From: an uncultured Gammaproteobacteria bacterium
GTDB taxonomy: Bacteria; Patescibacteriota; Microgenomatia; Levybacterales; GWA1-39-11
NCBI GenBank assembly: GCA_964427615.1
Contig: CAYRUR010000003.1
Coordinates: 44,062-108,061, forward strand
Direction: 5' to 3'
Length of the DNA stretch: 64,000 nt
Shown here in pieces: positions 5,912 through 48,356 of the stretch. Each line of letters starts with the position of its first letter. Position 1 is the stretch's first letter. The translations under genes and the position numbers were made by a program. The notes below the pieces were generated by a model that made no database searches, had not been told where the DNA came from, and was given only the letters and a program-made list of their open reading frames with translations.

Positions 5912-6130
5912 CTATTCTTCTTTCCATATTTTGTATATTAAATAGAGGGAAAAAAGAAGGGAAATAAGTCCCAGGGTAAGAAATTTTAACTGGAGTTCTC
6001 CAATTGAGAAAACTCCAACTGGGAAGGAAACGATGAAGGCTGCCTCTCGGTAAATTCTTTTTTTCGTGATCAGCCAAATAAGATAGAGGCCCAAAGCTAG
6101 ATCAAACGAGAATTGGAGCACTTCCAACAT
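5912..6130 (-). CDS. hypothetical small membrane protein (weak)
   Basis: 72-aa hydrophobic ORF in an otherwise long non-coding spacer. Confidence 0.2.
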   Translation of the reverse strand: MLEVLQFSFDLALGLYLIWLITKKRIYREAAFIVSFPVGVFSIGELQLKFLTLGLISLLFSLYLIYKIWKEE

Positions 6131-6329
6131 GTTTTTCTCTCTTTCCTCGAGAAACTCACAGAGACCCCTTCCGCCATTGGAAAAAGCTGTGAGTTCTAGT
6201 CAACTCAATGTGCGATAGTCTGTATTATACAAAAAAATGTCTGAATTTCAATACTATGAGACGTATGTTGTTGAAGATAAATAAAAAATGAGAATGAGTG
6301 TGGAGATTACGTTCTAAGATGAGTTAGAG

Positions 6330-7004: not shown

Positions 7005-7096
7005 ATATCTTTTTTGAACAATGTGAGAAGTTGATAAGAATTATGATTGAATTTTTACCTCATTTTAGGCTATAATAGTACACTTTGGGGAAAAGC

Positions 7097-7305
7097 GATG
7101 AATGAGTTAATGAGTGGCGCGTTAAAGAGTTAACGAGTTGAATTTTAGTATGAAGTATTAAGTATGGCAAGAAGAGTGTAGCAGTTTGACTTAAAATACT
7201 TACTGCTTAATACTAATTTAGATTTAAGATTTTTGAAAAAAGAGCTTTACAAACTTTATAACTTTGTAAACTCTTTAACCCGTTAACTCGTAACTCGTTA
7301 ACTAA
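7097..7305. repeat. symmetric motif block upstream of uvrA: GAGTTAATGAG..GCGTTAAAGAGTTAACGAGTT + AGTATGAAGTATTAAGTATGG ... mirrored as ATACTTACTGCTTAATACT + AACTCTTTAACCCGTTAACTCGTAACTCGTTAACT; includes an 8-bp-stem hairpin TTTACAAA-n9-TTTGTAAA
   Basis: Reverse-complement motif pairs read directly; fills the ~310-bp spacer before the uvrA start. Confidence 0.5.
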
Positions 7306-7313
7306 TAAAAATT

Positions 7314-12058: not shown

Positions 12059-13253
12059 AAAAAGAGTTTCCTCATACTTTAATAAGGGGAGGGCTCTTGA
12101 TGCCAAAACGATCAACTTGGTTGAAAAGATAGCCTCTATTTCCTATGTACCCGTAGCTTCGGAAATTGAAGCCTTTTTACTGGAAGCAGAGTACATCAAA
12201 GAATATCGGCCGTTTTATAACATAAAAATGGCTGATGACAAATCATTTCCCTATTTGGCCATAAGTAAAGGAGAGAATCCCCATATCACTATCACCCGCA
12301 AACGCAATCTAGAACAAGCGGATTATTTTGGTCCTTATCCTAATGTTACTGATTTAAAACTTGTCTTAAAACTCTTGAGAAAAATCTTTCCTTTTCAAAC
12401 AGTAAAGAATCATCCTAAAAAAGAATGCCTATATTATCACCTCAAACAATGTCCTTGTATTGCTGTGCATCCAGAACTGACAGATGAGTATACAAAAAAC
12501 CTGCGAAATATAAAGCTGTTTTTAAAAGGAAAAAAAGAAGCCATTATCAAAGACCTGGAAAAAGAGAGAGATACCTATGTAAAACAAGAAGCTTTTGAAA
12601 AAGCGCAGGAAATACAGAGAAAAATTGAGAAAATACTGTTGGTTAGCAGTGAACATTACAGCCCTTTTCGGTATCAAGAACGGCCTGATTTGTACTACGA
12701 AAGATTGCAAAAAGAGGTTGAATCATTAAAGTCCATTTTACAATCCCATCACCTGGACATAAAAAAACTGGAGAGAATAGAGTGTTATGATATTTCAAAT
12801 ATCCAAGGAAAAGAAGCAACGGGGTCTATGGTGGTACTTATAAATGGCGAAACAGCAAATAAAGAGTATCGCCGATTTAAAATCAAGTCAAAAAATACTC
12901 CAGATGATTTTCATATGATGAAAGAAGTAATAACACGCAGGATCAAAAACACGCAATGGCCGTATCCTGATTTATTTGTCATAGATGGAGGAAAAGGACA
13001 AGTAGGGAGTGTATTGCCAATCTTGAGACGCAACGGTATTCTCATTCCAGTTATTGGTCTTGCTAAAAGAGAGGAAATTATTGTTATTCCTCAAGAAATG
13101 CAGGAACATGAATTTGTGTATGAGGAAGTAAAATTACCAAAAGACACACCTGGTATCAATCTCCTGCGTAAAATAAGAGATGAGGCTCATCGTTTTGCTT
13201 TGACGTATCACCGGAATTTACGTAAAAAAAGACTATTGTCTTTGCTTGGGTAA
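11943..13253 (+). CDS. uvrC: excinuclease ABC subunit C, short form (GIY-YIG + UVR-like + RNase H-like endonuclease domain; lacks the C-terminal (HhH)2 domain); GTG start overlapping the upstream gene by ~115 bp, true start may be further in
   Basis: N-terminal GVYLFKD...ILYVGKAKDLKKRVSSYF (GIY-YIG); C-terminal YDISNIQG...PDLFVIDGGKGQ (UvrC endonuclease domain); only 436 aa. Confidence 0.75.
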   Translation: MVSLQAVLSYQSLPTVPGVYLFKDQNQKILYVGKAKDLKKRVSSYFNKGRALDAKTINLVEKIASISYVPVASEIEAFLLEAEYIKEYRPFYNIKMADDKSFPYLAISKGENPHITITRKRNLEQADYFGPYPNVTDLKLVLKLLRKIFPFQTVKNHPKKECLYYHLKQCPCIAVHPELTDEYTKNLRNIKLFLKGKKEAIIKDLEKERDTYVKQEAFEKAQEIQRKIEKILLVSSEHYSPFRYQERPDLYYERLQKEVESLKSILQSHHLDIKKLERIECYDISNIQGKEATGSMVVLINGETANKEYRRFKIKSKNTPDDFHMMKEVITRRIKNTQWPYPDLFVIDGGKGQVGSVLPILRRNGILIPVIGLAKREEIIVIPQEMQEHEFVYEEVKLPKDTPGINLLRKIRDEAHRFALTYHRNLRKKRLLSLLG

Positions 13254-13315
13254 CTTCAGTATACTACTTCGCTTTGTATACACAAAAAATAGTAATAGCT
13301 GATAGCATCTACTGG

Positions 13316-13351
13316 TTGATTCTGGTCGTACTCCGTTTGCCAGAATGACAA
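13316..13351. mobile_element. half-copy of the GTCATTCTGG/CCAGAATGAC MITE-like family (right arm only: TTGATTCTGGTCGTACTCCGTTTGCCAGAATGACAA)
   Basis: Near-identical to right half of copy at 1068-1152. Confidence 0.45.
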
Positions 13352-13449
13352 TATGTAAAAGACTTTTGAATTTGATTTTGAACTATACAAAGCTTCGTTA
13401 GGTATTATATATTGTATTTTGTAAGCAAAGGAGTATACAATTTATCTAT

Positions 13450-18912: not shown

Positions 18913-18991
18913 GAGGAAATGTATATAATCTCTAAACCTGAAATAGGTGCGCATTGCTTTCTGTTTTCTGCTCACCGTTTTTTTCTCATTC

Positions 18992-19075
18992 CTGAATCTC
19001 AAATCTTGAATCATACATTCTGAATCTTGCCTTCATACTTAATACTTACTTCTTAATACTTTATTCTCTTTCTAA
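18992..19075. repeat. 7-bp-period decayed tandem array (cctgaat/ctcaaat/cttgaat/catacat/tctgaat/.../taatact/tacttct/taatact), 12 units
   Basis: T at every 7th position across 11 of 12 units; contains ATACTTAATACT motif shared with 5.7, 7.1 and 30.0 kb spacers. Confidence 0.5.
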
Positions 19076-23029: not shown

Positions 23030-24484
23030 ATGGTTTATGCTAAGAATGTGAGAAAAAAGAAAGTACAAAACAAACTGTACGTTTTACCATCTTCTGCAGG
23101 AAAAATAGAACTAGCCTTTATCCTTTTGCTCGGTGCGCTTATTTTTGGTGCTGCTATGATGGGAGGGCTTATTGGAAAGAAAAAACTATCAGAAACAGCA
23201 ACTCCTATGTCAACAGAAACCAATGTTGTATGTTGTGATACAGGGGATGGAGATGCTTGCAAACCACAAACAGGAGAAAATCAGAAAATTACTTACAATG
23301 GAGTAGAATATGGACTGATTAAATCGGATGTTCAATTTATAGAAGGAAATTTACATTTACAAGACTCAGGTCAAAAAGCAAATGGTAATCCAATTATTAT
23401 CAATCCTTCAGAAGGTCATGGATTGAGGATCCCACAAGTACAATCTGGCTGTGAGCGTCCTAATCCTGTGAGCCAGAAAAAAGATCTTTATTTTGCAAAA
23501 ACCCCACCTGATCCATACATGTTTATGAAACCCGGTTGGACTTATAACCAAATGCAAACTTATTGTACCTCTATACCTGATGATCAAATGGTTTTTGTGT
23601 GTAAAAAGGATTGCCAACCACAAGCCTGCTCTATTGGGAGCTCTGACCATACTATCAAGTGTTACGGCACTACCAATAGTGTGTATGACGTATATTTCAG
23701 GCTTAATGATTTCCCTTCTCCTGGTATTCCTGACTTTATTAAGTATTGTGACAAAACAGCAATTCCCAATCAAAAATCAAATGAGGAGATAAAACAGAAA
23801 ATTGTAGTACCAACAGGTGAAGGGGGAGATAAAAAAGAATCATTACAACTAAAGACCTTTTCTATTATTGGCCAACGAGCTGCCAGTCCTGTTTTTTCAC
23901 CTCTTTGTAAACCTGCTATTTATCTCTATCCTCCTCAAAAAACAAATATCAATGTACAGGTACATCCAGAAGGTCCCATGACACTTACTATTCCTCCCTA
24001 TCCTGCAAATGGATGGAATGTTACCGCATATCCTGATGGAAGAATTATAAGTGGTACAAATACATTTGACTATTTATACTATGAAGCAGAAATTCCGGAT
24101 GAGTTTGTCTCAGAAGGAGATACTGGATACGTGGTAGAACAGAAAAATATAGAAAGTTTTCTTAATACAATACTACCCAAACTGGGATTAAATGAGAATG
24201 AAACAAAAGCATTTGTAGAATATTGGGTAAAAGCGCTTAAAACATCACCATATTTCGCTGTGCGAATAGTTTCAGATGATGACTTACATGCTATGGCTCC
24301 TCTGACTATTTCTCCTAAACCCGATACGGTCATCCGCGTTACATTGCTTTTTACTCCCTTAGAAAAGAAGATATCCTTGAAAGAGCCAACTATTTTGCCA
24401 AAAATTCGTAAAGGATTTACGGTCGTCGAATGGGGCGGACTCTACAAACAAGATAAAGACCACCCCTTCACCTGTTTTATGTAA
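23030..24484 (+). CDS. hypothetical membrane-anchored extracellular protein with Cys-rich N-terminal region
   Basis: TM helix near N-terminus (LAFILLLGALIFGAAMMGGLIG), multiple Cys pairs, 484 aa. Confidence 0.45.
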   Translation: MVYAKNVRKKKVQNKLYVLPSSAGKIELAFILLLGALIFGAAMMGGLIGKKKLSETATPMSTETNVVCCDTGDGDACKPQTGENQKITYNGVEYGLIKSDVQFIEGNLHLQDSGQKANGNPIIINPSEGHGLRIPQVQSGCERPNPVSQKKDLYFAKTPPDPYMFMKPGWTYNQMQTYCTSIPDDQMVFVCKKDCQPQACSIGSSDHTIKCYGTTNSVYDVYFRLNDFPSPGIPDFIKYCDKTAIPNQKSNEEIKQKIVVPTGEGGDKKESLQLKTFSIIGQRAASPVFSPLCKPAIYLYPPQKTNINVQVHPEGPMTLTIPPYPANGWNVTAYPDGRIISGTNTFDYLYYEAEIPDEFVSEGDTGYVVEQKNIESFLNTILPKLGLNENETKAFVEYWVKALKTSPYFAVRIVSDDDLHAMAPLTISPKPDTVIRVTLLFTPLEKKISLKEPTILPKIRKGFTVVEWGGLYKQDKDHPFTCFM

Positions 24485-24547
24485 AAAAGAAGAGCGTTTA
24501 GCGTATAGTGTATAGCGCTTAGATTTTAGGAAAAACTATTAAACAGA

Positions 24548-24638
24548 CGTCATTGCGATCCTGAGCTTGTCGAAGGAGAAGCAATCCCCTTACGAAAAAA
24601 GATCGCCACAGGAACTAGCGTTCCTTCGCGATGACAAT
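24548..24638. mobile_element. MITE-like element, variant family (termini CGTCATTGCGATC ... TTCGCGATGACAA) preceded by GCGTTTAGCGTATAG heptamer motifs
   Basis: Imperfect terminal inverted repeat with same GTCAT...ATGAC ends as the 1068/26092 family. Confidence 0.4.
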
Positions 24639-24768
24639 ACAGTTTTCCCTTTAGAATTTCGAATTTAGTGCTTAGAATTTAATCCTCATTTTCTTACTTG
24701 ACTTTATTTATGAGCAGCAAGTAATATATCCCTCGCGCTTGTTGTAAGAAAGCCGTAAGAATAGCTCT

Positions 24769-26076
24769 ATGATATCTGCCCTGCCCAAAAAAACCTTCAA
24801 AAAAATTGCGAGTTTACACCAGAAAATGCAATCATTACCCAATGAAATACGGCATTTGATATATGCCAATGCTATGCTTTCATTTGGCATGGGAGTAAGC
24901 TCTCTCTTCTTAAATATTTATCTCTGGAAACAGAGCAGCGGTCTACAAGACATCGTAACCTTTAATCTCATTCAGTATCCTGCGATTCTTTTTGCATTTA
25001 TTGTTGTAGGGATTATCAAAACTTCAGTAAAACTAAAACAAATGATGGGATTTGGATTTTTACTGTATATTGCCGGTTATGCATTGCTGATGATGTTAGG
25101 GAAACATGCAGTTGAGTACCTTCTTCCTCTTGGTTATTTATTTGGTATTGCAACTGGTTTTTATTGGGCTGGCAATAATACACTCACTTTTCTTTCAACA
25201 AAGGAAAAAAATAGAGATACTTTTTATGCACTCAATGCCTCAATTGGTTCATTTATATCAGTACTTACACCTCTTGTCAGTATGCTTGTTTTTTCTCAAT
25301 TTTTATTGCATACCCAAAGTGAATACACCCGTTATTTTTTACTTTTCTCTGTAGCCATTCTTATTTTTAGCTTTGGACTGTACTACTCGCTCAAACTGCC
25401 AAGTACACATGTGCCTAAAATTCGAGCGCGAGATACTATTAACCCCTTAAAGGATAGAATGTGGCAGATCGTTTCACTTTCACTTTTTTTTGAGGGATTT
25501 AAGGGAGGATCAGCAGGATTTATTGCATCCATCCTTACTTTCCAAGTTTTGACAACAGAGTTTGATATGGGATTATACAACAGCATTTTTGCCTTGTTAA
25601 GTGCAGCTGTTGCTTACAAGATGGCAGGGCGTTTGAATAAAAAAAATAGGATGAAGTTTGGATTTGTAGGTGCTACGTTATTTTTATTCTCTAATATTTT
25701 TTTTATAGGCATGTTTTCCTCAACTGGAATTTTAATTAGCTCTGCTATTGCTCTTTTTGCCAACCCTCTCTTTAGTGTAGGACTGGCTTCATCATTTTTC
25801 AGAGCTATAGACCACAATCCCAATCATAAAGAAGAATATTATAAATACATAACGTTTAGAGAGTTGATTCTTACTGTAGGTAGATTCTGTGGTGCATCTT
25901 TCTTTCTACTATTCTTAAATATCGGCAGCCAACTCACTATGGCAAAAGTATGGTATTTATTCTTAGGAGTTATTCCTCTGATTTATTTTCTGCTGACCCG
26001 CCATTTTGAGAAAATGATAGAAAAAGAATTAGCGTTTCAAAGTACCTCATTGCTTGAAGAAGAAGCTCAGAACTAG
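24769..26076 (+). CDS. major facilitator superfamily-like transporter (12 predicted TM helices)
   Basis: 435 aa, polytopic membrane protein with two 6-TM halves; weak MFS loop motifs. Confidence 0.5.
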   Translation: MISALPKKTFKKIASLHQKMQSLPNEIRHLIYANAMLSFGMGVSSLFLNIYLWKQSSGLQDIVTFNLIQYPAILFAFIVVGIIKTSVKLKQMMGFGFLLYIAGYALLMMLGKHAVEYLLPLGYLFGIATGFYWAGNNTLTFLSTKEKNRDTFYALNASIGSFISVLTPLVSMLVFSQFLLHTQSEYTRYFLLFSVAILIFSFGLYYSLKLPSTHVPKIRARDTINPLKDRMWQIVSLSLFFEGFKGGSAGFIASILTFQVLTTEFDMGLYNSIFALLSAAVAYKMAGRLNKKNRMKFGFVGATLFLFSNIFFIGMFSSTGILISSAIALFANPLFSVGLASSFFRAIDHNPNHKEEYYKYITFRELILTVGRFCGASFFLLFLNIGSQLTMAKVWYLFLGVIPLIYFLLTRHFEKMIEKELAFQSTSLLEEEAQN

Positions 26077-26091
26077 AAGTTATTTCAAAAC

Positions 26092-26199
26092 TGTCATTCT
26101 GGTAAGCCAATAGGCGCATCCAGAATCTCGATTGGTTCATAAATTGATTCTGGGCAAGTCCTTCGACCATGAGCTCAGGACCGAATGGCCAGAATGACT
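26092..26199. mobile_element. MITE-like palindromic element, copy 3 (CTGTCATTCTGG ... CCAGAATGACTA), 108 bp
   Basis: Same termini and internal CCAGAATCT / AATTGATTCTGG blocks as copy at 1068-1152; extra CCAGAATCAG fragment at 26238-26248. Confidence 0.55.
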
Positions 26200-26262
26200 A
26201 AATAAGGAGGTTTTGAAATGAGTTCTAGGTAACTTGTCCAGAATCAGAAAAGAGTTTATAAT

Positions 26263-27128: not shown

Positions 27129-28370
27129 TTACAAATGAGAGTATTCTTTTCGTATTTCCTCACGTTGATACTTGTCTGCTAGAAACCCATTTGGTTTTGT
27201 GGGTAATTTAGGTGCGTATGCCAAATATCCATTGCGCACTATATGTCCCCCATACTTTTTATTGAGACTATCTACCGCTTTTAAGAGTTTGTCTTGACGG
27301 GGATCTTCAAAAAGAGAGTAAGTAGTAACTTTTTTGTCTTCAATACTGCTCACCCAAATACTTATTTGCCGTACCATCCATTGCCAATTCCATTTTTGAT
27401 ATAAAAAGTAACATACTTCAAAAATATCTTGTCCTTTATCCATATACCTATCAGTCGTTTTTCTGCCTTGCATACTTTTTTCTCCCGCCAGAGAAAGTCC
27501 TACTGTTTTGGCTTTTTTATCTAGTTTGCGCAACTTTAATGCTACTTCTTCGCATAATTCATACATGATTTGTAAAATTCTTTCCTGGCTATATTCATTT
27601 TGAGGAAGACAATAGTTCCTGCCCACAGACTTAACTGTTTCCTGATGAGTGAAATGACGTACTAGACTCACATCTTTTCCATACGCAATATCTTTGAGAT
27701 GTAAAGCGCATACATTGCCAAATTCTTTTTTTAAATGAAAAAGAGGGTAGTCTCGTAAAGTAAGTAAATTTGTGATTCCCAGACAATACAGTCTCTTTTT
27801 CAATCGTTCTCCAATACCACACACTGTAGTCAGTTTGATTTGTGCATAAATAGTATCTAAATTTTTCTCATTAATTTCAGCAAAGCCATCTGGTTTATCA
27901 AGACCTGAGGCTAATTTTGCCAATAGTTTGTTGTGAGAAAGACCCACAGATACCGTAACCACAGGTCCAATTTCATTTCTAATGTCTGCTTTAATGCGTT
28001 CTACTACGCTAAAAATAGAAGGGTATAGATGCATGACAGGAGTCAAATCCATAAAAAGCTCATCCAAAGAAAAGAGTTCTACTATAGGACTATAACGACT
28101 GCAAATATCCAAAAACTTTTTGGTGATATCAAGATACCGGTCAAAATCAGCGGGGATAAAGATGATTTCAGGACAGATATTAACCGCTTCCCACGTACGC
28201 ATGCCTGTTTTTATGCCTTTTTTCTTTGCTTCGCGAGAAGCAGCAATAATACAAGTTCTGCCATTTGTTGCCGTAACACCAATAGGGTGATTACGTAAAT
28301 TAGGATTAAAATGTTGTTCACAGCTAGCAAAATAAGAATCAAAATCAATACAAAGAATAGTGCGTTTCAT
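27129..28370 (-). CDS. dinB: DNA polymerase IV (Y-family translesion polymerase)
   Basis: ILCIDFDSYFASCE... and SLDE motifs, little-finger domain; 413 aa. Confidence 0.85.
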   Translation of the reverse strand: MKRTILCIDFDSYFASCEQHFNPNLRNHPIGVTATNGRTCIIAASREAKKKGIKTGMRTWEAVNICPEIIFIPADFDRYLDITKKFLDICSRYSPIVELFSLDELFMDLTPVMHLYPSIFSVVERIKADIRNEIGPVVTVSVGLSHNKLLAKLASGLDKPDGFAEINEKNLDTIYAQIKLTTVCGIGERLKKRLYCLGITNLLTLRDYPLFHLKKEFGNVCALHLKDIAYGKDVSLVRHFTHQETVKSVGRNYCLPQNEYSQERILQIMYELCEEVALKLRKLDKKAKTVGLSLAGEKSMQGRKTTDRYMDKGQDIFEVCYFLYQKWNWQWMVRQISIWVSSIEDKKVTTYSLFEDPRQDKLLKAVDSLNKKYGGHIVRNGYLAYAPKLPTKPNGFLADKYQREEIRKEYSHL

Positions 28371-28545
28371 GCTGTTTTACGTTCACTTCAAGAGTACTTT
28401 ACCGTTAGAGTAAAATCCAAAACAAGTACATTTTTATCACTTTTTTAAGGGCAGTAGGAATCATAGGTGTAATAACTATATGAGAAAAATACTAGAAAAT
28501 CAATTGAATAAAAATAGAAATAACTATGACAAAATAGAGCAATTT

Positions 28546-29964
28546 TTAAGAGGAGGGAAGATCAGAAAAACGCACCTGTACTCCTTCTGTTTTTTTGTTT
28601 TTTAAAAGAGTAGAAGAAAGTATTTTATACGCATCATAGTCGAAAGAGTAATCATATGTTTTTACTTCCTGCGTATATTCAGAAATAATAGTGCGCTGGA
28701 TAATACACCATTTATCTATTAAAAATATCTCTTTATTTCCTTCATCATCTTTCTCTTCAAAAAAAATAGGGCCCGCAAACGGCCATTTTTTTATTTTGTA
28801 GTCATAGAATGCTTGCAAAAAACGGATGTTATAAAACAAGGCCTTTTCTTTTCCTACACATGCTCCTTTACACCATCCTAATTGATGCGCAAAGCAAGAT
28901 CCATTAGTGCTTTGCAAACCTAATATTTTTTGACACAATCCTCTTTCTTTAACTAAATTATTTAGTAAGTCTTTGGCTTGCTTTTTAGAACGAAAAACTC
29001 CCAAAACATTTTCAATTTCATCAACTGTTATACTCTTTTTGTGTTCTAAAACCACTGTGTCATACCCATTTTTGTCTGTTGTTTTTTTAAGATAGGTAAG
29101 GAGTCTTTTTTCACGCAATTTTCTATTGTGTAATGGCTGCATTTTTTTGATCAATTGGCTTTCTAATAATTGTGCTCCTAAGTCTCCACATGTTTTGATA
29201 GTCTCGATATGTTTTACTTCCTGAGTAAGCTGCATTTCTTTGGAAGAAGTGTAATCGCTTGAGAAATGGGAAAGCACTCTTTCTCTGATATTCTTGCTTT
29301 TTCCAATATAAAGCGGAGTAGATACATCTCCGTAAAAAATATATACACCAGGACTTTCAGGTAAGTCATTGAGTTTTTTTTCTGAAAGGTGGAGTGGAAT
29401 AGTAGGTTTTTTCAACACGTAGGAAATAGCCTCCGATATTCTCCTGTCCGGAAATTCAGTTTGCAGTTTTTTGTAAAACTCCCATACAACCTTAGCATCA
29501 TCAAATGCCCTGTGTCGTGCTTGACAAGAAATATCAAAACGTTCCATAAGGCTATCTAAGTTATGTCGAGTATGCTGAGGATATAAAAAACGGGAAAGCT
29601 TTACCGTACACAGATGTTTGCTGGTAAAAGAAATACTATGTCTTCTGAATTCATTGCGTAAAAATCCGTAATCAAAGCGCACGTTATGTGCCACAAAAAT
29701 ACATCCTGCAAGCATTTGTAAAATTTCTTCTTTTTTGTCTTCAAAAAAAGGAGCTCTTTCTAAATCTTGTTTTGAAATACCAGTAAGACTTTCAATAAAA
29801 GGAGAAACATGCATACCAGGGTTCAGAAGCGTTGAAAACTGGTCTATAACTTTATTTTCCTCAACTCGCAGGATGCCTATTTCAATAATTTTGTCATACA
29901 CAGGGCTATTTCCTGTGGTCTCTATATCAACAAAAGCAAGAGAAGAAGGAAGATCTTTTACCAT
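28546..29964 (-). CDS. fusion protein: N-terminal DEDDh 3'-5' exonuclease (DnaQ-like) + C-terminal GIY-YIG nuclease domain
   Basis: FVDIETTGNSP...HNVRFDYGFL...RHRAFDDA (Exo I-III); GVYIFYGD...LYIGKSKNIRERVLSHF (GIY-YIG). Confidence 0.75.
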   Translation of the reverse strand: MVKDLPSSLAFVDIETTGNSPVYDKIIEIGILRVEENKVIDQFSTLLNPGMHVSPFIESLTGISKQDLERAPFFEDKKEEILQMLAGCIFVAHNVRFDYGFLRNEFRRHSISFTSKHLCTVKLSRFLYPQHTRHNLDSLMERFDISCQARHRAFDDAKVVWEFYKKLQTEFPDRRISEAISYVLKKPTIPLHLSEKKLNDLPESPGVYIFYGDVSTPLYIGKSKNIRERVLSHFSSDYTSSKEMQLTQEVKHIETIKTCGDLGAQLLESQLIKKMQPLHNRKLREKRLLTYLKKTTDKNGYDTVVLEHKKSITVDEIENVLGVFRSKKQAKDLLNNLVKERGLCQKILGLQSTNGSCFAHQLGWCKGACVGKEKALFYNIRFLQAFYDYKIKKWPFAGPIFFEEKDDEGNKEIFLIDKWCIIQRTIISEYTQEVKTYDYSFDYDAYKILSSTLLKNKKTEGVQVRFSDLPSS

Positions 29965-30034
29965 AAGAAAAGTACCACCATACTAGCAAAAGAGGCATCT
30001 CATTAGCAAGCAATTAAATCTAAAACTAGTATAA

Positions 30035-30125
30035 AGTATGAAGAAGTAAGTAGTAAGTATAGAAAGAAATTAAAAAATAAAAAGTCAAAAAGCAAAAGTA
30101 GATGGCAAAAGTAAAAAGTTTTAAG
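30035..30125. repeat. 7-bp-period decayed tandem array, 13 units (agtatga/agaagta/agtagta/agtatag/aaagaaa/ttaaaaa/.../gcaaaag/taaaaag)
   Basis: Same unit vocabulary as 5710-5765 array. Confidence 0.5.
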
Positions 30126-30318
30126 ATTCTGTATATACTACATACTATATACTAAATACCCACTTTTAACTCTTTAACGCGCAATCCATTAACTTACTTG
30201 TACTTAAGCCCTAACCACTCAACGATACCGGCCCTGTACCAGACGGTACGGGACGGGCTTCGTAACCGTTTACCAAAAATCAATCCTCCTCATGGATCCT
30301 GAATTAAATTCAGGATGA

Positions 30319-30560
30319 CAAGCTTTGGTAGTTTTATATTTTTTCTAAACGCTAAACGCTTCTCTTTCTGGATCCTAAATCCCTCCTTTGTCAAGGCTTC
30401 GGAAGGGCACAGCAAGTTCCTCCGATTTGATTGCAGTTCAGGCCTAGGCTCTGAAGAGCCTTCAAGTAAAAGATACTGTAAGTGCTCGTAGAGATGACAC
30501 ATTTGTGGTGGTTTTAGTAATTTTTTCTAAACGCTAAACCCTATACGCTAAACGCTTGCT
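30319..30560. repeat. pair of ~45-bp direct repeats (GGT..TTTT..ATTTTTTCTAAACGCTAAAC(G/C)CT...) ~190 bp apart, each containing (CTAAACG)x2; between them hairpins ATCCTGAATT/AATTCAGGAT and AGGCTCT-ga-AGAGCCT
   Basis: Read directly; the annotated minus-strand 70-aa ORF 30290-30502 lies wholly in this repeat region and is probably spurious. Confidence 0.4.
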
Positions 30561-30595
30561 CTCTGTTTACTGTTTTCTGTTCTCTGCCTTCTTCT

Positions 30596-30623
30596 TAATT
30601 CCTAATTCATAATTCTTAATTCG
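30596..30623. repeat. tandem heptamer array (TAATTCN)x4: ttaattcc taattca taattct taattcg
   Basis: Read directly. Confidence 0.55.
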
Positions 30624-30669
30624 TACCTTCCAACTCGTTAACCCGTTAATAACCAATAAAGAATAATTT

Positions 30670-30706
30670 CTAAACCCTAAACCCTAAGCCCTAAACGCTA
30701 AACGCT
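30670..30706. repeat. tandem heptamer array (CTAAACS)x5: ctaaacc ctaaacc ctaagcc ctaaacg ctaaacg (telomere-like CCCTAAA-type motif)
   Basis: Read directly; same heptamer also at 30345-30360, 30527-30556 and reverse-complemented at 5823-5850 and 24493-24520. Confidence 0.6.
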
Positions 30707-30793
30707 CCATACTCACACACCTCCCTCCTTTTTCTCACCTTATCCTTACATTTTGTACCTACAATAGAGTTTCATTATTCTTATTGCATTATT

Positions 30794-31678
30794 ATGGATA
30801 ACCCAGAGCCTTATATCATTGAAAAAAAGGAAACTGATAAAGAGAATGAGATAGAAGAAATAATAAAACCTGAAGGTATTTACTCTATCTTGTATGGAGT
30901 TCACATCCTACCTACAGATCCCAATCTTTTACCCCAAAACGTATCAGCAGTATTTCTAGAAACAGGCATGATTAAGTGGGAAGATTACAGCATGGATTCT
31001 CTCAATTATTTGCGTAACCATAGGCAATACAAAGAAATCTTTGAGCAAATGGAAAAAAAGAAAATAACGCTTTTGTTAGGAGATGTAAATTATAGGTTTT
31101 CCTGGCTTATTCCATTTCTTGATATTGCAGTTTTACAAGCAGAGGCAAGTATGGGTATGAAATTACTAAAAAATAGTTTGGCAACCTTCAATAAAAATGA
31201 AAAACTTTCAAAAAAAGATATAGCAAAAATAATGGGAGGATCAGCAGCAGGATTATGGCTTTTATTGCCCATGCTTCCTGATTTAGTAAGAGCTGTATCC
31301 GTACTTACTAATGCAGGACTGAAAAAAAGTGCTACCCTACAAAAAGCAGTGTATAAATTACATCCTGAGTTATTTTTACTTCTAAAAACAATAAGAGAGG
31401 CAGTAATAGCTGAAAAAGAGCAAAAGCTTATGGAACATATAGGTAATAGACCTCATTTTGCAACTATAATGGGAGGAGCGCATACCGGTCTGGAAGATCA
31501 AATACTGGCAACACGTGAAGAAAGGCTTAAAACACTACAAAGATTAAAACCAGTCATCAAATTACTGGTAGTTCCTGAATCCTTCTACCAATTGGCACAG
31601 TGGAACTTTAATGGAAATGAGTGGGAGCTAACACGGATATACAATTTACCTGAATTAAGAGAGGTTGTGGAAGAATAA
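30794..31678 (+). CDS. hypothetical protein
   Basis: 294-aa ORF, acidic N-terminus, one internal hydrophobic segment; no family recognised. Confidence 0.4.
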   Translation: MDNPEPYIIEKKETDKENEIEEIIKPEGIYSILYGVHILPTDPNLLPQNVSAVFLETGMIKWEDYSMDSLNYLRNHRQYKEIFEQMEKKKITLLLGDVNYRFSWLIPFLDIAVLQAEASMGMKLLKNSLATFNKNEKLSKKDIAKIMGGSAAGLWLLLPMLPDLVRAVSVLTNAGLKKSATLQKAVYKLHPELFLLLKTIREAVIAEKEQKLMEHIGNRPHFATIMGGAHTGLEDQILATREERLKTLQRLKPVIKLLVVPESFYQLAQWNFNGNEWELTRIYNLPELREVVEE

Positions 31679-32831: not shown

Positions 32832-32896
32832 TCTCGAATAATATATTGATCTCACTAGAGTTCTACTCAAATTTACTACATTACAATTACAACACT

Positions 32897-33550
32897 TTAT
32901 TCTTCAGCTAATGATTGAGTGTAACCTAATTTAACAAGTTCTTCATACGCAGACCACACATCTTCTGGTATATCCTGAGGAATTTGATATCCCTTTTCTG
33001 CATATAATTTGATGCGTTGCAAATCACCTACCATAGATTGTATCGAAGCATCTTTACCTCTAGGAGAGGTATTCATATATTCATCATAGGAAACTTGGGG
33101 AGAGCTCATGATTACTTCTACTTCTGGCCATTGTTTTTTTATAGTCGCATATGTTCTTCTTTCTATATATGGCTTTTGAACAACAATAATGCGTTTTGCA
33201 TGAATTCCATGCTTTTCTAGTAAAGCTTTTGTAAAAAGCGTATTTTCACCTGAATTTTTTGTTTGAGTCTCTAATAGTACATTTTCTTTTGGTAACCCAA
33301 ATTCCTGAGCTGCTTCAGATAATGTCTCTGCTTCTGTCTTATCCCAAGAAGCAGTGGAATCACTTTTATGACCTGAAAAAACAACAATCGGAGCATAGCC
33401 TTGTAAAAAAAGTTCTGCTGCTCGTTTGCCAATGGTGGGATTATAGCTGCCAAATACCACAATCGCATCTGCCTTTTTTAAAGTATGATGCATGAGGCTA
33501 TAATTCCAGATCCTCTTTGCAAGATTATCTATATATTCTCTTGAGGGCAT
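32897..33550 (-). CDS. DUF218 (YdcF/SanA/ElyC-like) domain protein, copy 1
   Basis: AIVVFGS...VVFSG...ENTLFTKALL pattern; 217 aa; ~92% aa identity to paralogue at 38840-39493. Confidence 0.5.
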   Translation of the reverse strand: MPSREYIDNLAKRIWNYSLMHHTLKKADAIVVFGSYNPTIGKRAAELFLQGYAPIVVFSGHKSDSTASWDKTEAETLSEAAQEFGLPKENVLLETQTKNSGENTLFTKALLEKHGIHAKRIIVVQKPYIERRTYATIKKQWPEVEVIMSSPQVSYDEYMNTSPRGKDASIQSMVGDLQRIKLYAEKGYQIPQDIPEDVWSAYEELVKLGYTQSLAEE

Positions 33551-38734: not shown

Positions 38735-38839
38735 ATTTTTTTGTGGAGTAGTACTTTCCAAGTATTCTTCTAACTAAAACCCATCTTTATTTCTTAAACT
38801 ATCAAGTTGTTTAATGTTTTAGTTAACATTTAAGATGTC

Positions 38840-39493
38840 TCATTCTTCAGCTAATGATTGATCATAACCCAGTTTAACCAACTCTTCATATGCTTCCCAA
38901 ACATCTTGTGGTATTTCCTGAGGAATTTGGTATCCTTTTTCTGCATATAATTTGATCCGTTGCAAATCACCTACCATAGATTGTATTGATGCATCTTTTC
39001 CTCTGGGAGAAGTATTCATGTATTCATCATAGGAAACTTGGGGAGAGCTCATGATTACTTCTACTTCTGGCCATTGTTTTTTGATAGTAGCATATGTTCT
39101 TCTTTCTATGTATGGCTTTTGAACAACAATAATACGTTTTGCATAAATTCCATGCTTTTCCAGTAAAGCTTTTGAAAAGAGCGTATTTTCACCTGAATTT
39201 TTTGCTTGAGTCTCTAACAATATATTTTCTTTTGGCAACCCAAACTCCTGGGCTGCTTCAGATAATACTTCTGCCTCTGTTTTATCCCAAGAAGCTGTAG
39301 AATCACTTCTATTACCTGAGAAAACAACAACCGGAGCATATTCTCGTAGAAAAAGTTCTGCTACTCGCTTAGCAACAATAGGATTATAACTACCAAATAC
39401 CACAATAGCATCTGCCTTTTTTAGCTCATGATGCATGAGACTATAATCCCAAATCTTTTTAGCAAGATTGTCTATGTATTCTTCTGAGGACAT
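38840..39493 (-). CDS. DUF218 (YdcF/SanA/ElyC-like) domain protein, copy 2 (ORF extends to 39529 but start at Met 39493 aligns with copy 1)
   Basis: Near-identical to 32897-33550 product. Confidence 0.5.
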   Translation of the reverse strand: MSSEEYIDNLAKKIWDYSLMHHELKKADAIVVFGSYNPIVAKRVAELFLREYAPVVVFSGNRSDSTASWDKTEAEVLSEAAQEFGLPKENILLETQAKNSGENTLFSKALLEKHGIYAKRIIVVQKPYIERRTYATIKKQWPEVEVIMSSPQVSYDEYMNTSPRGKDASIQSMVGDLQRIKLYAEKGYQIPQEIPQDVWEAYEELVKLGYDQSLAEE

Positions 39494-39547
39494 GAGTAGA
39501 TTATAGTAGAAAACCCACACAAGGAGCAATTTACTAGGCGATACTAG
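38840..39547. repeat. direct repeat B (partner of 32897-33568)
   Basis: See repeat A. Confidence 0.6.
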
Positions 39548-41450: not shown

Positions 41451-42083
41451 TTACAACGAAGAACGAAATCCAATTAACACAAGAAAAATCACTGCTATTG
41501 CTGGAGTTAGCAACATTAGCAGAATATTAATTCCTAAGTTAGAAATAAGACTCCATGCAATGTCATCTCTCTTAAGCTTAAATAAAGATAATACAATTAT
41601 TAGGAAGACATTCCCCACTATCCAGATTAAATAACCGTACTTTAAAGATGTTAGATTTAAAAAGTGGGCTGCAATAATCTCAAGTGGGTTGTAGAAAATT
41701 GTACTCAGCTCACCTGAAAAAAGGATCCAAACAAGAAATAGTGTGCTGGTAACTAAGTAAGCTAGCAATAAGTTAGGAACAATACTCAATGCACTGTTCT
41801 CTCTCTTAAGTTTAAATAAAGATAATACAATTGTTAGAAAAATATTTCCCACCATCCAGCTTAGATAACCGTACTTAAAGGTCATTAGAATGAAAAAGTA
41901 GGCTACAATAATCATAAGTGGATCGTAGTTACCCAGATTACTCAGTTTATCCCGATCACCTGAAGAAAGCGTCCAGACAAAAGACATCCAGACAAGAGGT
42001 AGCGTGTTGGTAACTAAGTAAGCTAGCACCCCAAATTTAATATGTTTTAATATTCTTCTCACAGAATGTACATTATTATACAC
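41451..42083 (-). CDS. hypothetical membrane protein built from an internal tandem duplication (~80-aa 2-TM unit x2)
   Basis: Repeat units AYLVTNTLPLVW...KYGYLSWMVGNIFLTIVLSLFKLKRE and AYLVTSTLFLVW...KYGYLIWIVGNVFLIIVLSLFKLKRD; nucleotide-level duplication visible (~41556-42020). Confidence 0.4.
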   Translation of the reverse strand: MYNNVHSVRRILKHIKFGVLAYLVTNTLPLVWMSFVWTLSSGDRDKLSNLGNYDPLMIIVAYFFILMTFKYGYLSWMVGNIFLTIVLSLFKLKRENSALSIVPNLLLAYLVTSTLFLVWILFSGELSTIFYNPLEIIAAHFLNLTSLKYGYLIWIVGNVFLIIVLSLFKLKRDDIAWSLISNLGINILLMLLTPAIAVIFLVLIGFRSSL

Positions 42084-43101: not shown

Positions 43102-43177
43102 TGGCGCCCCTGGAGGGAATCGAACCCCCAACCTTTTCCTTAGAAGGGAACTGCTCTGTCCGTTGAGCTACAGAGGC
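43102..43177 (-). tRNA. tRNA-Arg (anticodon TCT), CCA encoded
   Basis: Reverse complement: acceptor GCCTCTG/CAGGGGC (one U-G), D GCTC-aacggaca-GAGC, anticodon stem TTCC/GGAA loop cTTCTaa, T-arm GGGGG-ttcgatt-CCCTC, then GCCA. Confidence 0.65.
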
Positions 43178-45283: not shown

Positions 45284-46195
45284 ATGAGTGTGAAGATGAA
45301 GGAGAAGATCATGAGTAACTTATCAATTACACAATACGTAAACAACGACATTATCTTGAAAAACATTCAAGATGTTTTAAAAGACAGAACACCACAGTTT
45401 ATAACCTCTGTTGTGTCTTTAGTAAACAGCAGTGATGCATTAAAAGAGGCTGATAAAAAATCAGTACTAGGTGCATGTTTAACTGCAGCATCTTTGAATT
45501 TGCCAATTAACCAAAATCTGGGCTATGCCTATATCATTCCTTACAAAGATAACAAAAAAGGCGTAACAGTAGCTCAATTCCAGATGGGCTACAAAGGGTA
45601 TATCCAGCTCGCTATGAGAAGCGGACAATTTCAAACACTGAATGTTACAGACGTAAGAGAAGGAGAACTTAAAGAAGTAGATAGATTATCAGGGGAAATG
45701 AAATTTGAATGGGCTACTGAGAAAAGAGATTCACTTCCTGTTGTTGGGTATGTTGGCTACTTCAGACTTATAAACGGATTTGAGAAAAAGCTATATATGA
45801 CATCTGAGGAATTAAAAAAGCATGGTGTTAGATTCTCAAGCTCATATAAGAGGGGTTACGGACTCTGGAAAGATGACTTTGATGCAATGGCTAAAAAGAC
45901 GGTTATCAAGCTTCTGTTATCGAAATACGCTCCCATGAATACAGAGATGACTCAAGCTCAGGAAGCAGATCAAGCTTTAGTAACTGATAACGGATATGAG
46001 TATATCGATAACCAGAAACTTACTCCTGAAGAAGAAGCAGATATCAAAGAAAAGGAAAGAATAAAGAAGTTTATAACAGAAGCAAAAACACTTAAAAATC
46101 TAGAAGCTTGCAACACTGCTGTATATGACTCAACAGACCAAGAATTAATTGACATGTATGAAGCAAGAGTGAAGGAATTGGAGGGTAAAAAATAA
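45284..46195 (+). CDS. recT: RecT-family single-strand annealing protein (phage recombinase)
   Basis: ...SVLGACLTAASLNLPIN...GYAYIIPYKD...AQFQMGYKGYIQLAMRSGQF matches RecT family core. Confidence 0.7.
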   Translation: MSVKMKEKIMSNLSITQYVNNDIILKNIQDVLKDRTPQFITSVVSLVNSSDALKEADKKSVLGACLTAASLNLPINQNLGYAYIIPYKDNKKGVTVAQFQMGYKGYIQLAMRSGQFQTLNVTDVREGELKEVDRLSGEMKFEWATEKRDSLPVVGYVGYFRLINGFEKKLYMTSEELKKHGVRFSSSYKRGYGLWKDDFDAMAKKTVIKLLLSKYAPMNTEMTQAQEADQALVTDNGYEYIDNQKLTPEEEADIKEKERIKKFITEAKTLKNLEACNTAVYDSTDQELIDMYEARVKELEGKK

Positions 46196-46258: not shown

Positions 46259-46489
46259 GTGATGAGGAGGAAGAAAATAATGAATAACTACTATTTTACA
46301 TTTGGACAAGTACATACACATTCTGTAAACGGAAAAACATTTGATAAGGACTGCGTGGTTTCAATAAAAGCTGGTTCTAGTGACTCAGCTCGTAGAAAAA
46401 TGTTTGATACGTTTGGACAGAAATGGGCTTCTCAATATGAAACTCAACCAGATATGAGATTTTACCCAGGAGGAATAATAACACTATGA
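46259..46489 (+). CDS. hypothetical phage protein
   Basis: 76-aa ORF between recT and exonuclease genes. Confidence 0.3.
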   Translation: MMRRKKIMNNYYFTFGQVHTHSVNGKTFDKDCVVSIKAGSSDSARRKMFDTFGQKWASQYETQPDMRFYPGGIITL

Positions 46490-47175
46490 ACACAATAGAC
46501 TTTACAAATTACAAATTCAGATCAAGCTCTTTACCTAACTTAATGGTTAAATCTCGCAGTAAATCAGATCCTTTATCTGAGACTACTAAAGCATATCTTA
46601 GAGAACTATGGATTAAAGAAATGTTTAAGCGTGAGAAGTACGACACAAAAAACAAGTTTACCGATAAAGGCATTGCTTGTGAGTCAGATAGTCTTGATTT
46701 AGTACAAATCGTTACTAAACAGACTTACTTTAAAAACAGAAAGGAACTATCAAATGATTTCATTACTGGCACACCTGATGTTATTTTAGAAGACTCAATT
46801 ATCGATATTAAAACTTCTTGGGATATCTGGACATATGGTAGCACCACAGAGGACAGCGCTAGAAAGACATACTACTATCAACTCTTAGGGTACATGTGGC
46901 TTACCAATACTAAAAAAGCAAGCCTTATGTACTGCCTAGTAAACACGCCAGAGGATATCATGAATGATGAGTTATATCGCTTGAGTTTTAGATATCCAGA
47001 AATTAATGAAAGTGATGAAAAGGCCAATAAGTACAAAAGAAACTATATCTTTGATGATATAGATCACACTCTGAGACTTAAAAAATATGACTTTGAATTT
47101 GTAGAAGAAGATATCAACGAATTGCAAAACAAAATTGTACTTGCCCGTGAGTACATGAATGGTTTGAGTTTGTAG
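46486..47175 (+). CDS. YqaJ-like PD-(D/E)XK recombination exonuclease (partner of RecT)
   Basis: FITGTPDVILEDSIIDIKTS = D...E.K nuclease motif; position immediately after recT. Confidence 0.55.
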   Translation: MNTIDFTNYKFRSSSLPNLMVKSRSKSDPLSETTKAYLRELWIKEMFKREKYDTKNKFTDKGIACESDSLDLVQIVTKQTYFKNRKELSNDFITGTPDVILEDSIIDIKTSWDIWTYGSTTEDSARKTYYYQLLGYMWLTNTKKASLMYCLVNTPEDIMNDELYRLSFRYPEINESDEKANKYKRNYIFDDIDHTLRLKKYDFEFVEEDINELQNKIVLAREYMNGLSL

Positions 47176-47486: not shown

Positions 47487-48356
47487 ATGAAATGGTTTAA
47501 ACACGAAGCAGACGCTTCACAAAATAAAAAGGTCAGAAAGTTGAAGAGAATGTACGGGGCTGAAGGCTATGCAGTATATTTTCAAATCGCTGAGTTTATA
47601 GCAGAAGACATTGAAAAAGACAATGTTAATGATTGGGGATTCTTACCTCATGAGTATGACGATATGGAATTCTTAGCAGATGAAGTAGGTATAGAAGATG
47701 TGGAGAAATTAAAAGAAATTATAGAGTTCTGCTGCAGCAATCCAGTGAATTTATTTGAGAAAAGAGAGGGAAGAATTTATTGTGAAAGAGTATTAGAACA
47801 GGCAGATGAATATACTCAGAAATTAATTAAACAAGCGAAAGGTAATTTAGGTGAAAAATCGGGAGAAAGTGAGGCTAAAGAAGAGACTGAATCAGAAGTG
47901 AATCGGGATAGTATCGGGAGTAAATCGGGAGACAATCAAGAGTCAGTCGGGCATAAGAAGAAGAAAGAGAAAGAGAATCAGAATGAGAAAAAGAAAGAGA
48001 ATGAAAAAGAAGAAAAGGATTTAAAAAAATCCATTGCTTATTTGTCTAGTTTTCCTTTAGAAGATTTTGCAGAGATTGATATTACGGAAAAACAACTGAG
48101 ATTAGAGGCTCAAAAAGCGCTCAACTGGCTCAAGTCAGAAGGCAAAAGAAAGAAAGATTATCAAGCATTTTTTGTTAATTGGATTCTAAGAAACTACAAA
48201 ATGAAGTCAGAGGTAGTACTTTTCCCTGAGCATAAAAAAGTTCCACCAGAACAGCGAGTCTCAAACGAAAAAATGCAACAGCTCAGGCAACAGTTAACAG
48301 GAATCGCAAAATCTAAGTCAGTCAATGGAGAGGAGGTGAAAAACAATGGAGGATAA
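47487..48356 (+). CDS. Lin1244/Lin1753-like (DUF4373) N-terminal domain protein, phage replication initiation/organiser-type; K/E-rich low-complexity middle
   Basis: N-terminus MKWFKHEADASQNKKVRKLKRMYGAEGYAVYFQIAEFIAE matches DUF4373. Confidence 0.55.
   Translation: MKWFKHEADASQNKKVRKLKRMYGAEGYAVYFQIAEFIAEDIEKDNVNDWGFLPHEYDDMEFLADEVGIEDVEKLKEIIEFCCSNPVNLFEKREGRIYCERVLEQADEYTQKLIKQAKGNLGEKSGESEAKEETESEVNRDSIGSKSGDNQESVGHKKKKEKENQNEKKKENEKEEKDLKKSIAYLSSFPLEDFAEIDITEKQLRLEAQKALNWLKSEGKRKKDYQAFFVNWILRNYKMKSEVVLFPEHKKVPPEQRVSNEKMQQLRQQLTGIAKSKSVNGEEVKNNGG

Follow-up and report, generated by a model that had tools for sequence, protein, structure and literature searches.

Heptamer arrays in the spacer upstream of the ORF at 30794

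We analysed a 64,000-nt stretch of contig CAYRUR010000003.1 (hereafter the window), a bacterial sequence with four tRNAs, dense open reading frames (ORFs) and about 36% GC, and focused on tandem arrays of 7-nt units (heptamers) in its intergenic spacers. The array flagged by an earlier inspection of the letters (the sequence-only reading) lies in an 829-bp spacer (29965-30793) between a cho-like gene, which starts at 29964, and a 294-aa ORF with its ATG at 30794. At 30670-30704 the sequence reads CTAAACC-CTAAACC-CTAAGCC-CTAAACG-CTAAACG, and Tandem Repeats Finder (TRF) called the array at 30670-30703 (period 7, 4.9 copies, 88% matches, score 54, consensus CTAAACC), so that direct reading and TRF agree that the five-unit array is real. 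It constitutes the 3' module of a composite element on the plus strand (30670-30706), with 85-91 nt from the array end to the ATG at 30794, and is identical in an independent Logan assembly (contig L004).

Other period-7 arrays were called by TRF in the same spacer at 30560, 30527, 30345, 30132, 30067 and 30041. Immediately upstream of the flagged array lies a plus-strand linker, CCAACTCGTTAACCCGTTAATAACC-AATAAAGAATAAT (30627-30669), in which a promoter-like TTAACC-18-AATAAT ends 3 nt short of the array; the linker is kept in paralogs at 218-260 of Logan contig L002 and, as the reverse complement, at 2070-2097 of the window. It is preceded on the same strand by a TAATTCN (TTCTTAA) array (30592-30626; 4.4 units, TRF 30592-30622), which is the second array that had been noticed about 50 bp upstream of the flagged one, and by a TNTCTGT array of 3.9 units (30560-30587), whose homologs are a TTTTCTG block at L002:128-150 and window positions 18962-18975. 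Further upstream, ATTTTTT followed by CTAAACG-CTAAACC-CTATACG-CTAAACG (30521-30556, plus strand, 4.3 units) is a duplicate (82%) of the plus-strand segment 30314-30360, in which GATGACA...TATTTTTT precedes 2.3 units of CTAAACG and a promoter-like ATGACA-16-TATTTT ends at 30342. A CTANATA array with a AACTCTTTAACGCGC..ATTAACT module (30131-30200, plus strand) is 79% identical to the reverse complement of 7105-7165. At the cho side of the spacer, ATACTTA-type and ACTTTTT-type arrays on the minus strand (30021-30125), where that strand is pyrimidine-rich, lie 60-160 nt upstream of the gene start and are identical in Logan contig L001.

The dimer CTAAACGCTAAAC occurs as exact copies at 30345, 30527 and 30691. 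The recurrences listed in the sequence-only reading were exact on the plus strand at 30345 and 30527, and the reverse-complement copies given for 24493 and 5823 were found to match at only 13 of 14 positions, inside decayed arrays. These near-copies are the reverse complements of CTATACGCTAAACG (24495-24508) and CTAACCGCTAAACG (5831-5844), and a further copy is present at 2056-2069. Heptamer arrays and hairpin elements together make up about three-quarters of the 29965-30793 spacer, as estimated from coordinates. Its coding potential was limited to short ORFs of at most 70 aa running across the repeats, and Rfam searches at gathering and permissive thresholds returned tRNAs only.

Excess of period 7 in non-coding chromosomal DNA

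We counted 14 non-redundant period-7 arrays in the window, where 40 block shuffles that preserved local composition gave 2.3 on average and never more than 5. Twelve of the 14 lay in non-coding DNA, which makes up 22% of the window. The corresponding counts for periods 8, 9 and 10 were 6, 8 and 1. Lag-7 identity in non-coding DNA was 0.301, compared with 0.284 ± 0.0034 in the shuffles (z=5.1), while coding DNA gave 0.270 and no excess. By region, the chromosomal part of the window reached 0.310, and the prophage-like part (0.286) showed no excess. These results show a strong over-representation of 7-nt tandem arrays that is confined to non-coding chromosomal DNA, and the feature is real and statistically robust. 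The 7-bp excess over shuffled AT-rich sequence, on which the sequence-only reading had staked its case, is thus present within the 64 kb by both TRF and autocorrelation.

The same data bear on a trivial origin by chance in AT-rich DNA, assembly artefact or contamination with eukaryotic telomeric (CCCTAAA)n sequence. The spacers are AT-rich and CTAAACC-CTAAACC is the plant-type telomere unit, but shuffles of local composition do not give the excess, and independent Logan assemblies carry the same sequence. The likeness to telomeres that had been remarked upon is coincidental: the site is internal between bacterial genes, only two units are perfect CTAAACC, no perfect CCCTAAA dimer is present, and the other copies are CTAAACG or CTATACG. 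We regard the probability of any such trivial origin as close to negligible.

With regard to the ORF map, the uvrC ORF is listed with a GTG start at 11943, which gives a 116-nt overlap with the preceding transglutaminase-like ORF (11943-12058); the true start is probably further downstream, and 12059-13449 was therefore mis-scored as non-coding by the crude ORF map used here.

A composite block recurs in at least six spacers

An all-vs-all blastn comparison of the spacers, which included 1.1 kb just left of the window from the same organism's Logan contig L002, connected the spacers in a network, the significant matches ranging from E=1e-3 to 8e-17. The best pair was 30594-30699 and L002:181-283 (77% over 106 nt, E=8e-17), and 11 more significant pairs connected the spacers at 2.0, 5.7, 7.1, 19.0, 24.5 and 30.0-30.7 kb with one another and with the spacer left of the window. 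Positions 5707-5761 matched 30046-30100 (80%), 19035-19067 matched the reverse complement of 30028-30060 (91%), 24493-24523 matched the reverse complement of 30526-30556 (90%), and blastn also matched 5668-5721 to 7105-7158, 7105-7165 to the reverse complement of 30135-30194, and 18962-19067 to L002:128-216. The longer decayed arrays that had been pointed out at about 5710-5765, 18992-19075 and 30035-30125 are real, and the 80% and 91% cross-matches bear out their common unit vocabulary.

Alignment of the copies on their G-poor strand (alignment A5) gave the order T-rich TTTTCTG/ACTTTTT arrays, ATACTTA array, AACTCGTTAAC array, non-repeated AATAAAGAATAAT and CTAAACS array. The number of units differs among the copies, the CTAAAC array ranging from 2 to 4.9 units, and the CTAAACS family occupies five spacers within about 65 kb. 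The blastn network and the alignment show that the array clusters in at least six spacers, in both orientations, are paralogs, whole or fragmentary, of a single composite block whose modules keep a fixed order. The suspicion that the arrays spread is borne out in this form, since both units and whole multi-array blocks recur as paralogs.

Upstream of lexA, an AATAAT-CTAATCC-CTAAACGC module on the minus strand (2054-2097) carries a promoter-like TTTTCA-18-AATAAT and is 80% identical to the reverse complement of 30640-30685. A TTCNATT array of 4.9 units (3058-3098, plus strand) ends 9-16 nt before the uvrB ATG. The minus-strand segment 5660-5848, upstream of the gene at 5160-5555, contains CTAACCG-CTAAACG and ACTTTTA arrays, a hairpin, ACTTTT/GCCTTTT arrays, an ATACTTA array and a AACTCGTTAAC array, and is identical in L002 and L003 up to 5783. 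In the spacer before uvrA, a module of an ATACTTA array and a AACTCGTTAAC array (7105-7171, minus strand) faces the minus-strand gene 6330-7004 and contains a promoter-like TTGCCA-17-TAAAAT; its mirror image (7188-7308, plus strand) faces uvrA (ATG 7314), carries TTGACT-17-AATACT, and 11 nt separate the end of its AACTCGTT array from that ATG. A TTTCTG block with an ATACTTA array (18962-19075, plus strand; 73-77% to L002:128-216) stands just upstream of the tRNA-Arg promoter-like TTGATT-18-TACAAT. At 24492-24532 a CTAAACG/CTATACG-family array on the minus strand (plus strand AGCGTTT-AGCGTAT-AGTGTAT-AGCGCTT) begins 8 nt past the stop codon of the gene at 23030-24484, and a TTTAGAA array of 4.6 units (24650-24684, plus strand) has a major facilitator superfamily (MFS) gene 88 nt downstream.

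In the reading that we consider probable, the flagged array represents a single module of a non-coding repeat family that is dispersed and modular and consists of short decayed heptanucleotide arrays, that is, long simple sequence repeats (LSSRs) resembling the short tandemly repeated repetitive (STRR) sequences, in a bacterium related to Microgenomates/Levybacteria.

A second repeat class occupies the same spacers. These hairpin elements of 85-110 nt have termini GTCATTCTGG...CCAGAATGACA or GTCATTCTGG/CCAGAATGAC, lie on the minus strand at 1068-1152, 13316-13351, 24548-24637 and 26091-26200, fold with z from -3.6 to -5.7 and have no Rfam match; pieces of them occur at 30291-30320, 5766-5800 and L002:54-83. 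Some carry an internal CCTGAGCT..GTCGAAGG motif, they often adjoin heptamer arrays, and their overall appearance is similar to that of miniature inverted-repeat transposable elements (MITEs) or REPINs. Their ATGACA end also serves as a -35-like hexamer. A separate strong hairpin, GGAGCGAGTACGAA-TTTCGTACCCGCTCC (5850-5885, 13-bp stem), adjoins a CTAAACG-type array; folding of the 134 nt around it gave z=-4.3 for the plus strand and -3.4 for the minus strand.

Polarity and position relative to promoters and start codons

The sense strand of the following gene was pyrimidine-rich in 15 of 18 non-coding arrays (binomial p=0.0075, a value that overstates independence because the arrays are paralogous), and contained less G than C in 14 of 18. 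In both divergent spacers the polarity switches mid-spacer, near 7167/7193 and 30119/30131. Upstream regions of this genome in general showed no such polarity and no G-depletion. These results show that the blocks are polarised, their G-poor, pyrimidine-rich strand usually being the sense strand of the downstream gene.

Sigma-70-like hexamers stop 3 nt short of the CTAAAC arrays at 30345 and 30670, and promoter-like sites lie inside both mirror modules (7142-7214). The counts of such sites were not above those in shuffled AT-rich sequence (4 vs 2.0 ± 1.6; 22 vs 16.1 ± 4.1), and the sites are best treated as leads rather than evidence. The distance from array to start codon ranged from 11 to more than 250 nt. 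It was below 20 nt only for the uvrB and uvrA arrays (2 of 18), the others being 55-380 nt away; a fixed distance from start codons, which had been proposed as a sign of promoter-phase variation, was thus not found.

No recognisable Shine-Dalgarno (SD) sequence precedes the array-preceded uvrB, uvrA, MFS gene and 294-aa ORF at 30794 (3100-3110, 7300-7316, 24755-24771 and 30780-30796, respectively). Other genes have one, such as the gene at 2210 with AAGGAGG, and SD usage in the organism may be patchy.

Stability of the arrays

Independent Logan assemblies of two runs (SRR7082966 and SRR7082976) were identical to the window over 30612-30793 (L004), 29965-30262 (L001) and 5100-5783 (L002 and L003). 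The Logan contigs end within the repeat-filled spacers, at window positions 30612, 30262 and 5783, which is the expected behaviour of multi-copy sequence. The longest perfect 7-periodic run in the whole window was 18 nt (about 2.6 units), and each array had at most five imperfect units. Substitutions within the arrays are spread as random decay predicts: a designed degeneracy with a single variable position in each unit (as in TAATTCN, N being C, A, T or G) was not significant in a permutation test (P=0.085).

Tandem repeats in promoter-containing spacers, two of them adjoining -10-like hexamers, could in principle act as phase-variable contingency loci, in which slippage changes promoter geometry and switches the neighbouring genes. 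In the hmw genes of Haemophilus, heptamer promoter repeats can modulate expression. Against this, the arrays here are too short and imperfect for ready slippage, being interrupted by substitutions; four array regions were without length difference, and no unit-number variation was seen, between the assemblies of the two runs, a comparison of consensus contigs. The start-codon distances vary, and what adjoins the arrays is housekeeping in nature: DNA-repair genes and a tRNA. The phase-variable array that the sequence-only reading had entertained is therefore not supported, and we judge contingency loci to be a highly improbable explanation.

Folding of the arrays and comparison with relatives and Omnitrophota

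The two mirror modules before uvrA (7105-7171 and 7188-7308) pair into a long nested hairpin, and the uvrA leader (7085-7316) folds with z=-3.8 through these mirror-image arrays. The flagged region (30520-30796) is almost free of G and has no inverted partner. Its 277 nt showed essentially no structure (-16 kcal/mol, z=-0.6), and z was likewise -0.6 for the cho-side leader.

We examined 80 loci from related or homolog-bearing genomes. The Microgenomates-type loci L016, L013, L020 and L021 had decayed heptamer arrays in clusters, built from other units and some of them adjoining start codons; CTAAACS tandems were found in none of the 80. In a metagenome scan, the junction 20-mer ATTTTTTCTAAACGCTAAAC occurred in three contigs that share the architecture and have about 45% GC, one of which (L088) was assigned to Candidatus Omnitrophota by its SecDF protein. 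The yajC-secD spacer of Omnitrophota was then compared at several levels of SecD identity. At 98-100% identity it has four units per arm, (AGCGTAT)4-ATTTTTT-(CTAAACG)4; at 96% it has another unit family, with inverted arms (GATGCTN)4...(GAGNATC)5 adjoining the ATG; at 86% it has a short inverted pair, GAGCGCATAGCGTTTAGTA-TTTC-CTATACGCTAAACACT; and at 78% (L093) it is 4 nt long with no array. The two array versions of this spacer fold with z=-3.3 and -5.1, and other Omnitrophota spacers with z=-3.95 and -6.1. In the Omnitrophota lineage, then, arrays arise, grow and are replaced fast, with recurrence of the inverted-arm architecture.

The Omnitrophota genome of L088 and L090 also carries inverted 9-mer arrays (GGTTACGGA / GTAACCTCC) at both ends of its trpE-like gene (L090:131-227 and L090:1705-1802). 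These fold with z=-6.1, are absent from relatives at 86% and 78% identity, and represent a dispersed hairpin-array family.

The main rival to a family of decayed arrays is that the blocks are functional RNA or DNA hairpin or leader cassettes, in which inverted arrays form stem-loops (for stability, processing or translational coupling) and G-poor arrays provide unstructured leaders for SD-less genes. The uvrA leader fold is in its favour, as are the absence of an obvious SD after the arrays of uvrB, uvrA and the 30794 gene and, in Omnitrophota, the retention of 4-5-unit inverted arms by the ATG while AGCGTAT/CTAAACG units were exchanged for GATGCTN/GAGNATC at 96% SecD identity. In other organisms, STRR hairpins of cyanobacteria were proposed to stabilise transcripts or couple translation (PMC2670836), and TAACTGA repeats occur at start codons without a ribosome-binding site (PMC4679880). 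However, neither the flagged region, with no inverted partner, nor the cho-side leader is structured to any extent, and the arrays are dispensable, being absent from distant orthologous spacers such as that of L093. The Omnitrophota comparison lends some weight to such cassettes, which are partly compatible with a dispersed family of decayed arrays, and we regard them as possible, if doubtful.

(CTAAACG)3 was also present in four viral contigs (34-62% GC), with some inverted pairs. Three composition-matched control heptamer triples gave 9, 5 and 4 viral matches, and the idea of CTAAACG as a special or horizontally transferred unit was rejected because control heptamers match viral contigs as often. 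The sharing of units across phyla may be convergent, heptamer arrays of any sequence being generically common.

Genomic neighbourhood and host

The left two-thirds of the window, where the arrays abound, form a DNA-repair neighbourhood with lexA, uvrB, uvrA, uvrC, dinB and the cho-like gene. The clustering of these SOS and nucleotide excision repair (NER) genes is unusual (1306-13253 and 27129-29964), the set comprising lexA, uvrB, uvrA and uvrC together with dinB, of the IMS family, and a Cho-like fusion of a DnaQ exonuclease with GIY-YIG. Just upstream of lexA, at 2006-2020, stands the perfect palindrome CTTGAA-CAT-TTCAAG, a candidate LexA operator.

This setting is one reason to ask whether the arrays may be protein-binding sites, for example of a nucleoid-associated protein or a SOS/NER regulator. 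Arrays cluster in the spacers of the repair neighbourhood, their polarity is consistent, and the same units recur in several spacers. Yet at least eight unit sequences are present, each in 2-5 imperfect copies, and a spacing of 7 bp does not keep phase with the DNA helix. A tRNA, the MFS transporter gene and a methylase gene also have arrays beside them, and this occurrence next to non-SOS genes likewise disfavours the arrays as LexA operators. Units are wholly replaced between close Omnitrophota relatives, and no candidate binding protein was identified. Binding sites of this kind thus seem improbable. The lesser alternatives rank, in falling order of likelihood, as protein binding, contingency loci, telomere-like sequence and, last, chance.

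The best named homologs of the flanking Cho-like exonuclease belong to Candidatus Levybacteria, and its nearest relative among 5.8 billion proteins is 60% identical. Related loci in species-representative genomes come from metagenome-assembled genomes of Levyibacteriota, Gottesman-, Roizman- and Woesebacteria (45-56% identity). No exact match was on record for the proteins of the ORFs 61694-63088 and 6330-7004. To judge from the named homologs, the host is probably a rather isolated, ultra-small bacterium of the Candidate Phyla Radiation (CPR)/Microgenomates type. A cyanobacterial host, suggested by the STRR likeness, was rejected: the window has no HIP1 GCGATCGC sites and the homologs are CPR. 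The remark that long repeat-filled spacers are unexpected in a compact genome is fair for such a host, the orthologous gene of the nearest relative (L085, 60% identity) having an upstream spacer of only 117 bp; that spacer is not syntenic and is uninformative about the arrays.

The right third of the window, from about 43 kb on (43100-64000), is prophage-like and adjoins tRNA-Arg(tct) (43102-43177), and its ORFs are all on the plus strand. It has strong positive GC and AT skew and is essentially without heptamer arrays, and most of its large ORFs have no Pfam or PHROG match. Plus-strand genes recognised in it encode a RecT-like annealing protein (45284-46195), a RecE/YqaJ-like exonuclease (46486-47175) and a replication-initiator-like protein (47487-48356). 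Within the phage-type initiator ORF lies an 11-bp-period array, (G/A)AATCGGGAGN in about five copies (47890-47951), followed by an AG-rich low-complexity tract (47958-48017); by analogy with lambda O/ori, the array looks like an iteron-type origin inside the initiator gene.

Two larger duplications were also noted. A 300-nt direct repeat of 86% identity (32870-33169 and 38813-39112) extends over the 3' parts of a pair of DUF218 paralogs on the minus strand (32897-33550 and 38840-39529), and a 160-nt internal tandem duplication of 82% identity (41535-41694 and 41769-41928) lies within the ORF 41451-42083.

Origin of the arrays and significance

Under the preferred reading, a dispersed family of decayed heptamer arrays, the arrays would be born by slipped-strand mispairing that favours a 7-nt step (the polymerase-footprint idea) and would then decay by point mutation. 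The slipped-strand origin mentioned in the sequence-only reading fits the known excess of heptameric simple sequence repeats in bacteria, as that excess is summarised in PMC4679880 and PMC4692102 (citing Mrazek 2007). Whole blocks may then be copied between spacers by recombination, gene conversion or some transposition-like process, and inverted (mirror) copies could arise via template switching. The element is probably selfish or neutral and would be tolerated mainly in one orientation because, as we infer, it is co-transcribed with the adjacent gene or gives that gene an AT-rich, promoter-like and unstructured, G-poor leader.

Several points weigh against this account. Slippage alone leaves unexplained both the recurrent composite order and the persistence of inverted arms in Omnitrophota despite the change of units. 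The array blocks had no consistent ends in the blastn network and the alignment of copies, and no terminal inverted repeats were identified there. Copy number and orientation bias are based on about 65 kb of genome, and the polarity p-value is made too favourable by paralogy, as stated above. Promoter-like sites are no more frequent than in shuffled sequence, and the taxonomic placement is drawn from named homologs at just 45-60% identity.

A broader proposition is that ultra-small CPR bacteria, Omnitrophota and some viruses hold an undescribed class of fast-evolving heptamer cassettes, often hairpin-forming mirror arrays, that are copied between spacers and conserved in architecture (arm length, inverted symmetry, polarity and position by promoters or start codons) and not in sequence. 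We think this unlikely, but if it were true, the conserved cassette architecture would point to selection for a portable function, as promoter, leader or mRNA structure, or to an enzyme dedicated to generating the cassettes.

The occurrence of heptamer repeats in a reduced, CPR-like genome is instructive in that the non-coding DNA of such a genome should be under shrinkage pressure. Either the generating process is strong enough to fill spacers of 0.3-0.8 kb, or the blocks are useful. The modular, polarised blocks, and the swap of units at 96% flanking identity with inverted arms kept in Omnitrophota, offer handles on the mechanism in metagenomic data. In practical terms, such repeats break short-read assemblies and can mislead gene callers.

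Comparison with known repeat systems

Elements of the BIME/REP (bacterial interspersed mosaic element/repetitive extragenic palindrome), BOX and Correia types are short non-coding modules in fixed order, dispersed in spacers with orientation bias, that may carry promoter-like sequences or hairpins. The blocks described here resemble them in modular organisation, spacer dispersal and orientation bias, and the MITE/REP-BIME trait of dispersed homologous intergenic copies is evident in the blastn network and the alignment of copies. BIME, BOX and Correia modules are not made of tandem heptamers. Defined palindromes or terminal inverted repeats mark the REP and Correia elements, and REP has a known transposase, RAYT. 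In contrast, the array blocks have no identified palindromic or terminal inverted-repeat ends and no identified enzyme, and differ in this from the neighbouring hairpin elements with their GTCATTCTGG/CCAGAATGAC termini. An iteron or origin-type array (11-22 bp repeats by an initiator gene) does not describe them either: the period is 7 and no rep gene is nearby, the iteron-like array at 47890-47951 being a separate feature.

The STRR1-3 units are CCCCAGT, TTGGTCA and CAACAGT, and no tandem dimers of them occur in the window. Cyanobacterial STRRs (Mazel et al. 1990; PMC2670836, PMC4692102) are 7-bp hairpin-capable repeats of no known function, dispersed over many intergenic loci. The arrays here share with them tandem heptamers and hairpin capacity, and their CTAAACS family recurs in five spacers within about 65 kb. 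They differ in that the host is not a cyanobacterium and the cyanobacterial arrays, as described there, are typically longer and more perfect. With the wrong host and the wrong units, the repeats here are not STRR in the strict sense.

The TAACTGA repeats of marine Beggiatoaceae, some Cyanobacteria and Bacteroidetes (MacGregor 2015, PMC4679880) are similar in having 2-6 heptamer copies in intergenic positions, forward to the downstream gene; some lie directly upstream of SD-less starts, and the unit is common to unrelated phyla (PMC4679880). There, however, one unit dominates (169 sets, PMC4679880), whereas here many units stand in a fixed modular order and only 2 of 18 arrays adjoin a start codon. 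The window holds five single occurrences of TAACTGA and no tandem dimers. The GGGAATC repeats of Xanthomonas and the GGGGAYT repeats of Nostoc (Rehm et al. 2015, PMC4692102) are likewise intergenic heptamer arrays, sometimes in inverted pairs, whose length and sequence vary widely between close relatives while their position is conserved (PMC4692102). Those repeats are G-rich and G-quadruplex-capable, while the arrays here are G-poor, AT-rich and without G-quadruplex potential. The repeats here are not members of the TAACTGA or G-quadruplex repeat families.

The repeats here behave like LSSRs, of which heptamers are the most abundant class in many bacteria, with polymerase slippage as the proposed rationale, according to PMC4679880 and PMC4692102 (citing Mrazek 2007). 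As summarised there, period 7 exceeds the neighbouring periods, the repeats are mostly intergenic, and slippage with a polymerase footprint of about 7 nt was proposed. The arrays here differ in having at most five decayed units, in forming fixed-order multi-array blocks copied among spacers, and in belonging to a CPR-like lineage outside the survey as it is presented in those papers. No description of such repeats from CPR or Omnitrophota came up in a literature search, many subscription papers being outside its reach. An excess of intergenic heptamers has been known since 1990 (STRR) and 2007 (the LSSR survey), with cause and function not understood. With a composition-corrected excess, predominance of period 7 and an intergenic position, the repeats described here qualify as heptanucleotide LSSRs, and they are best classed as a new, CPR-like instance of a kind of intergenic heptamer repeat that is already known.

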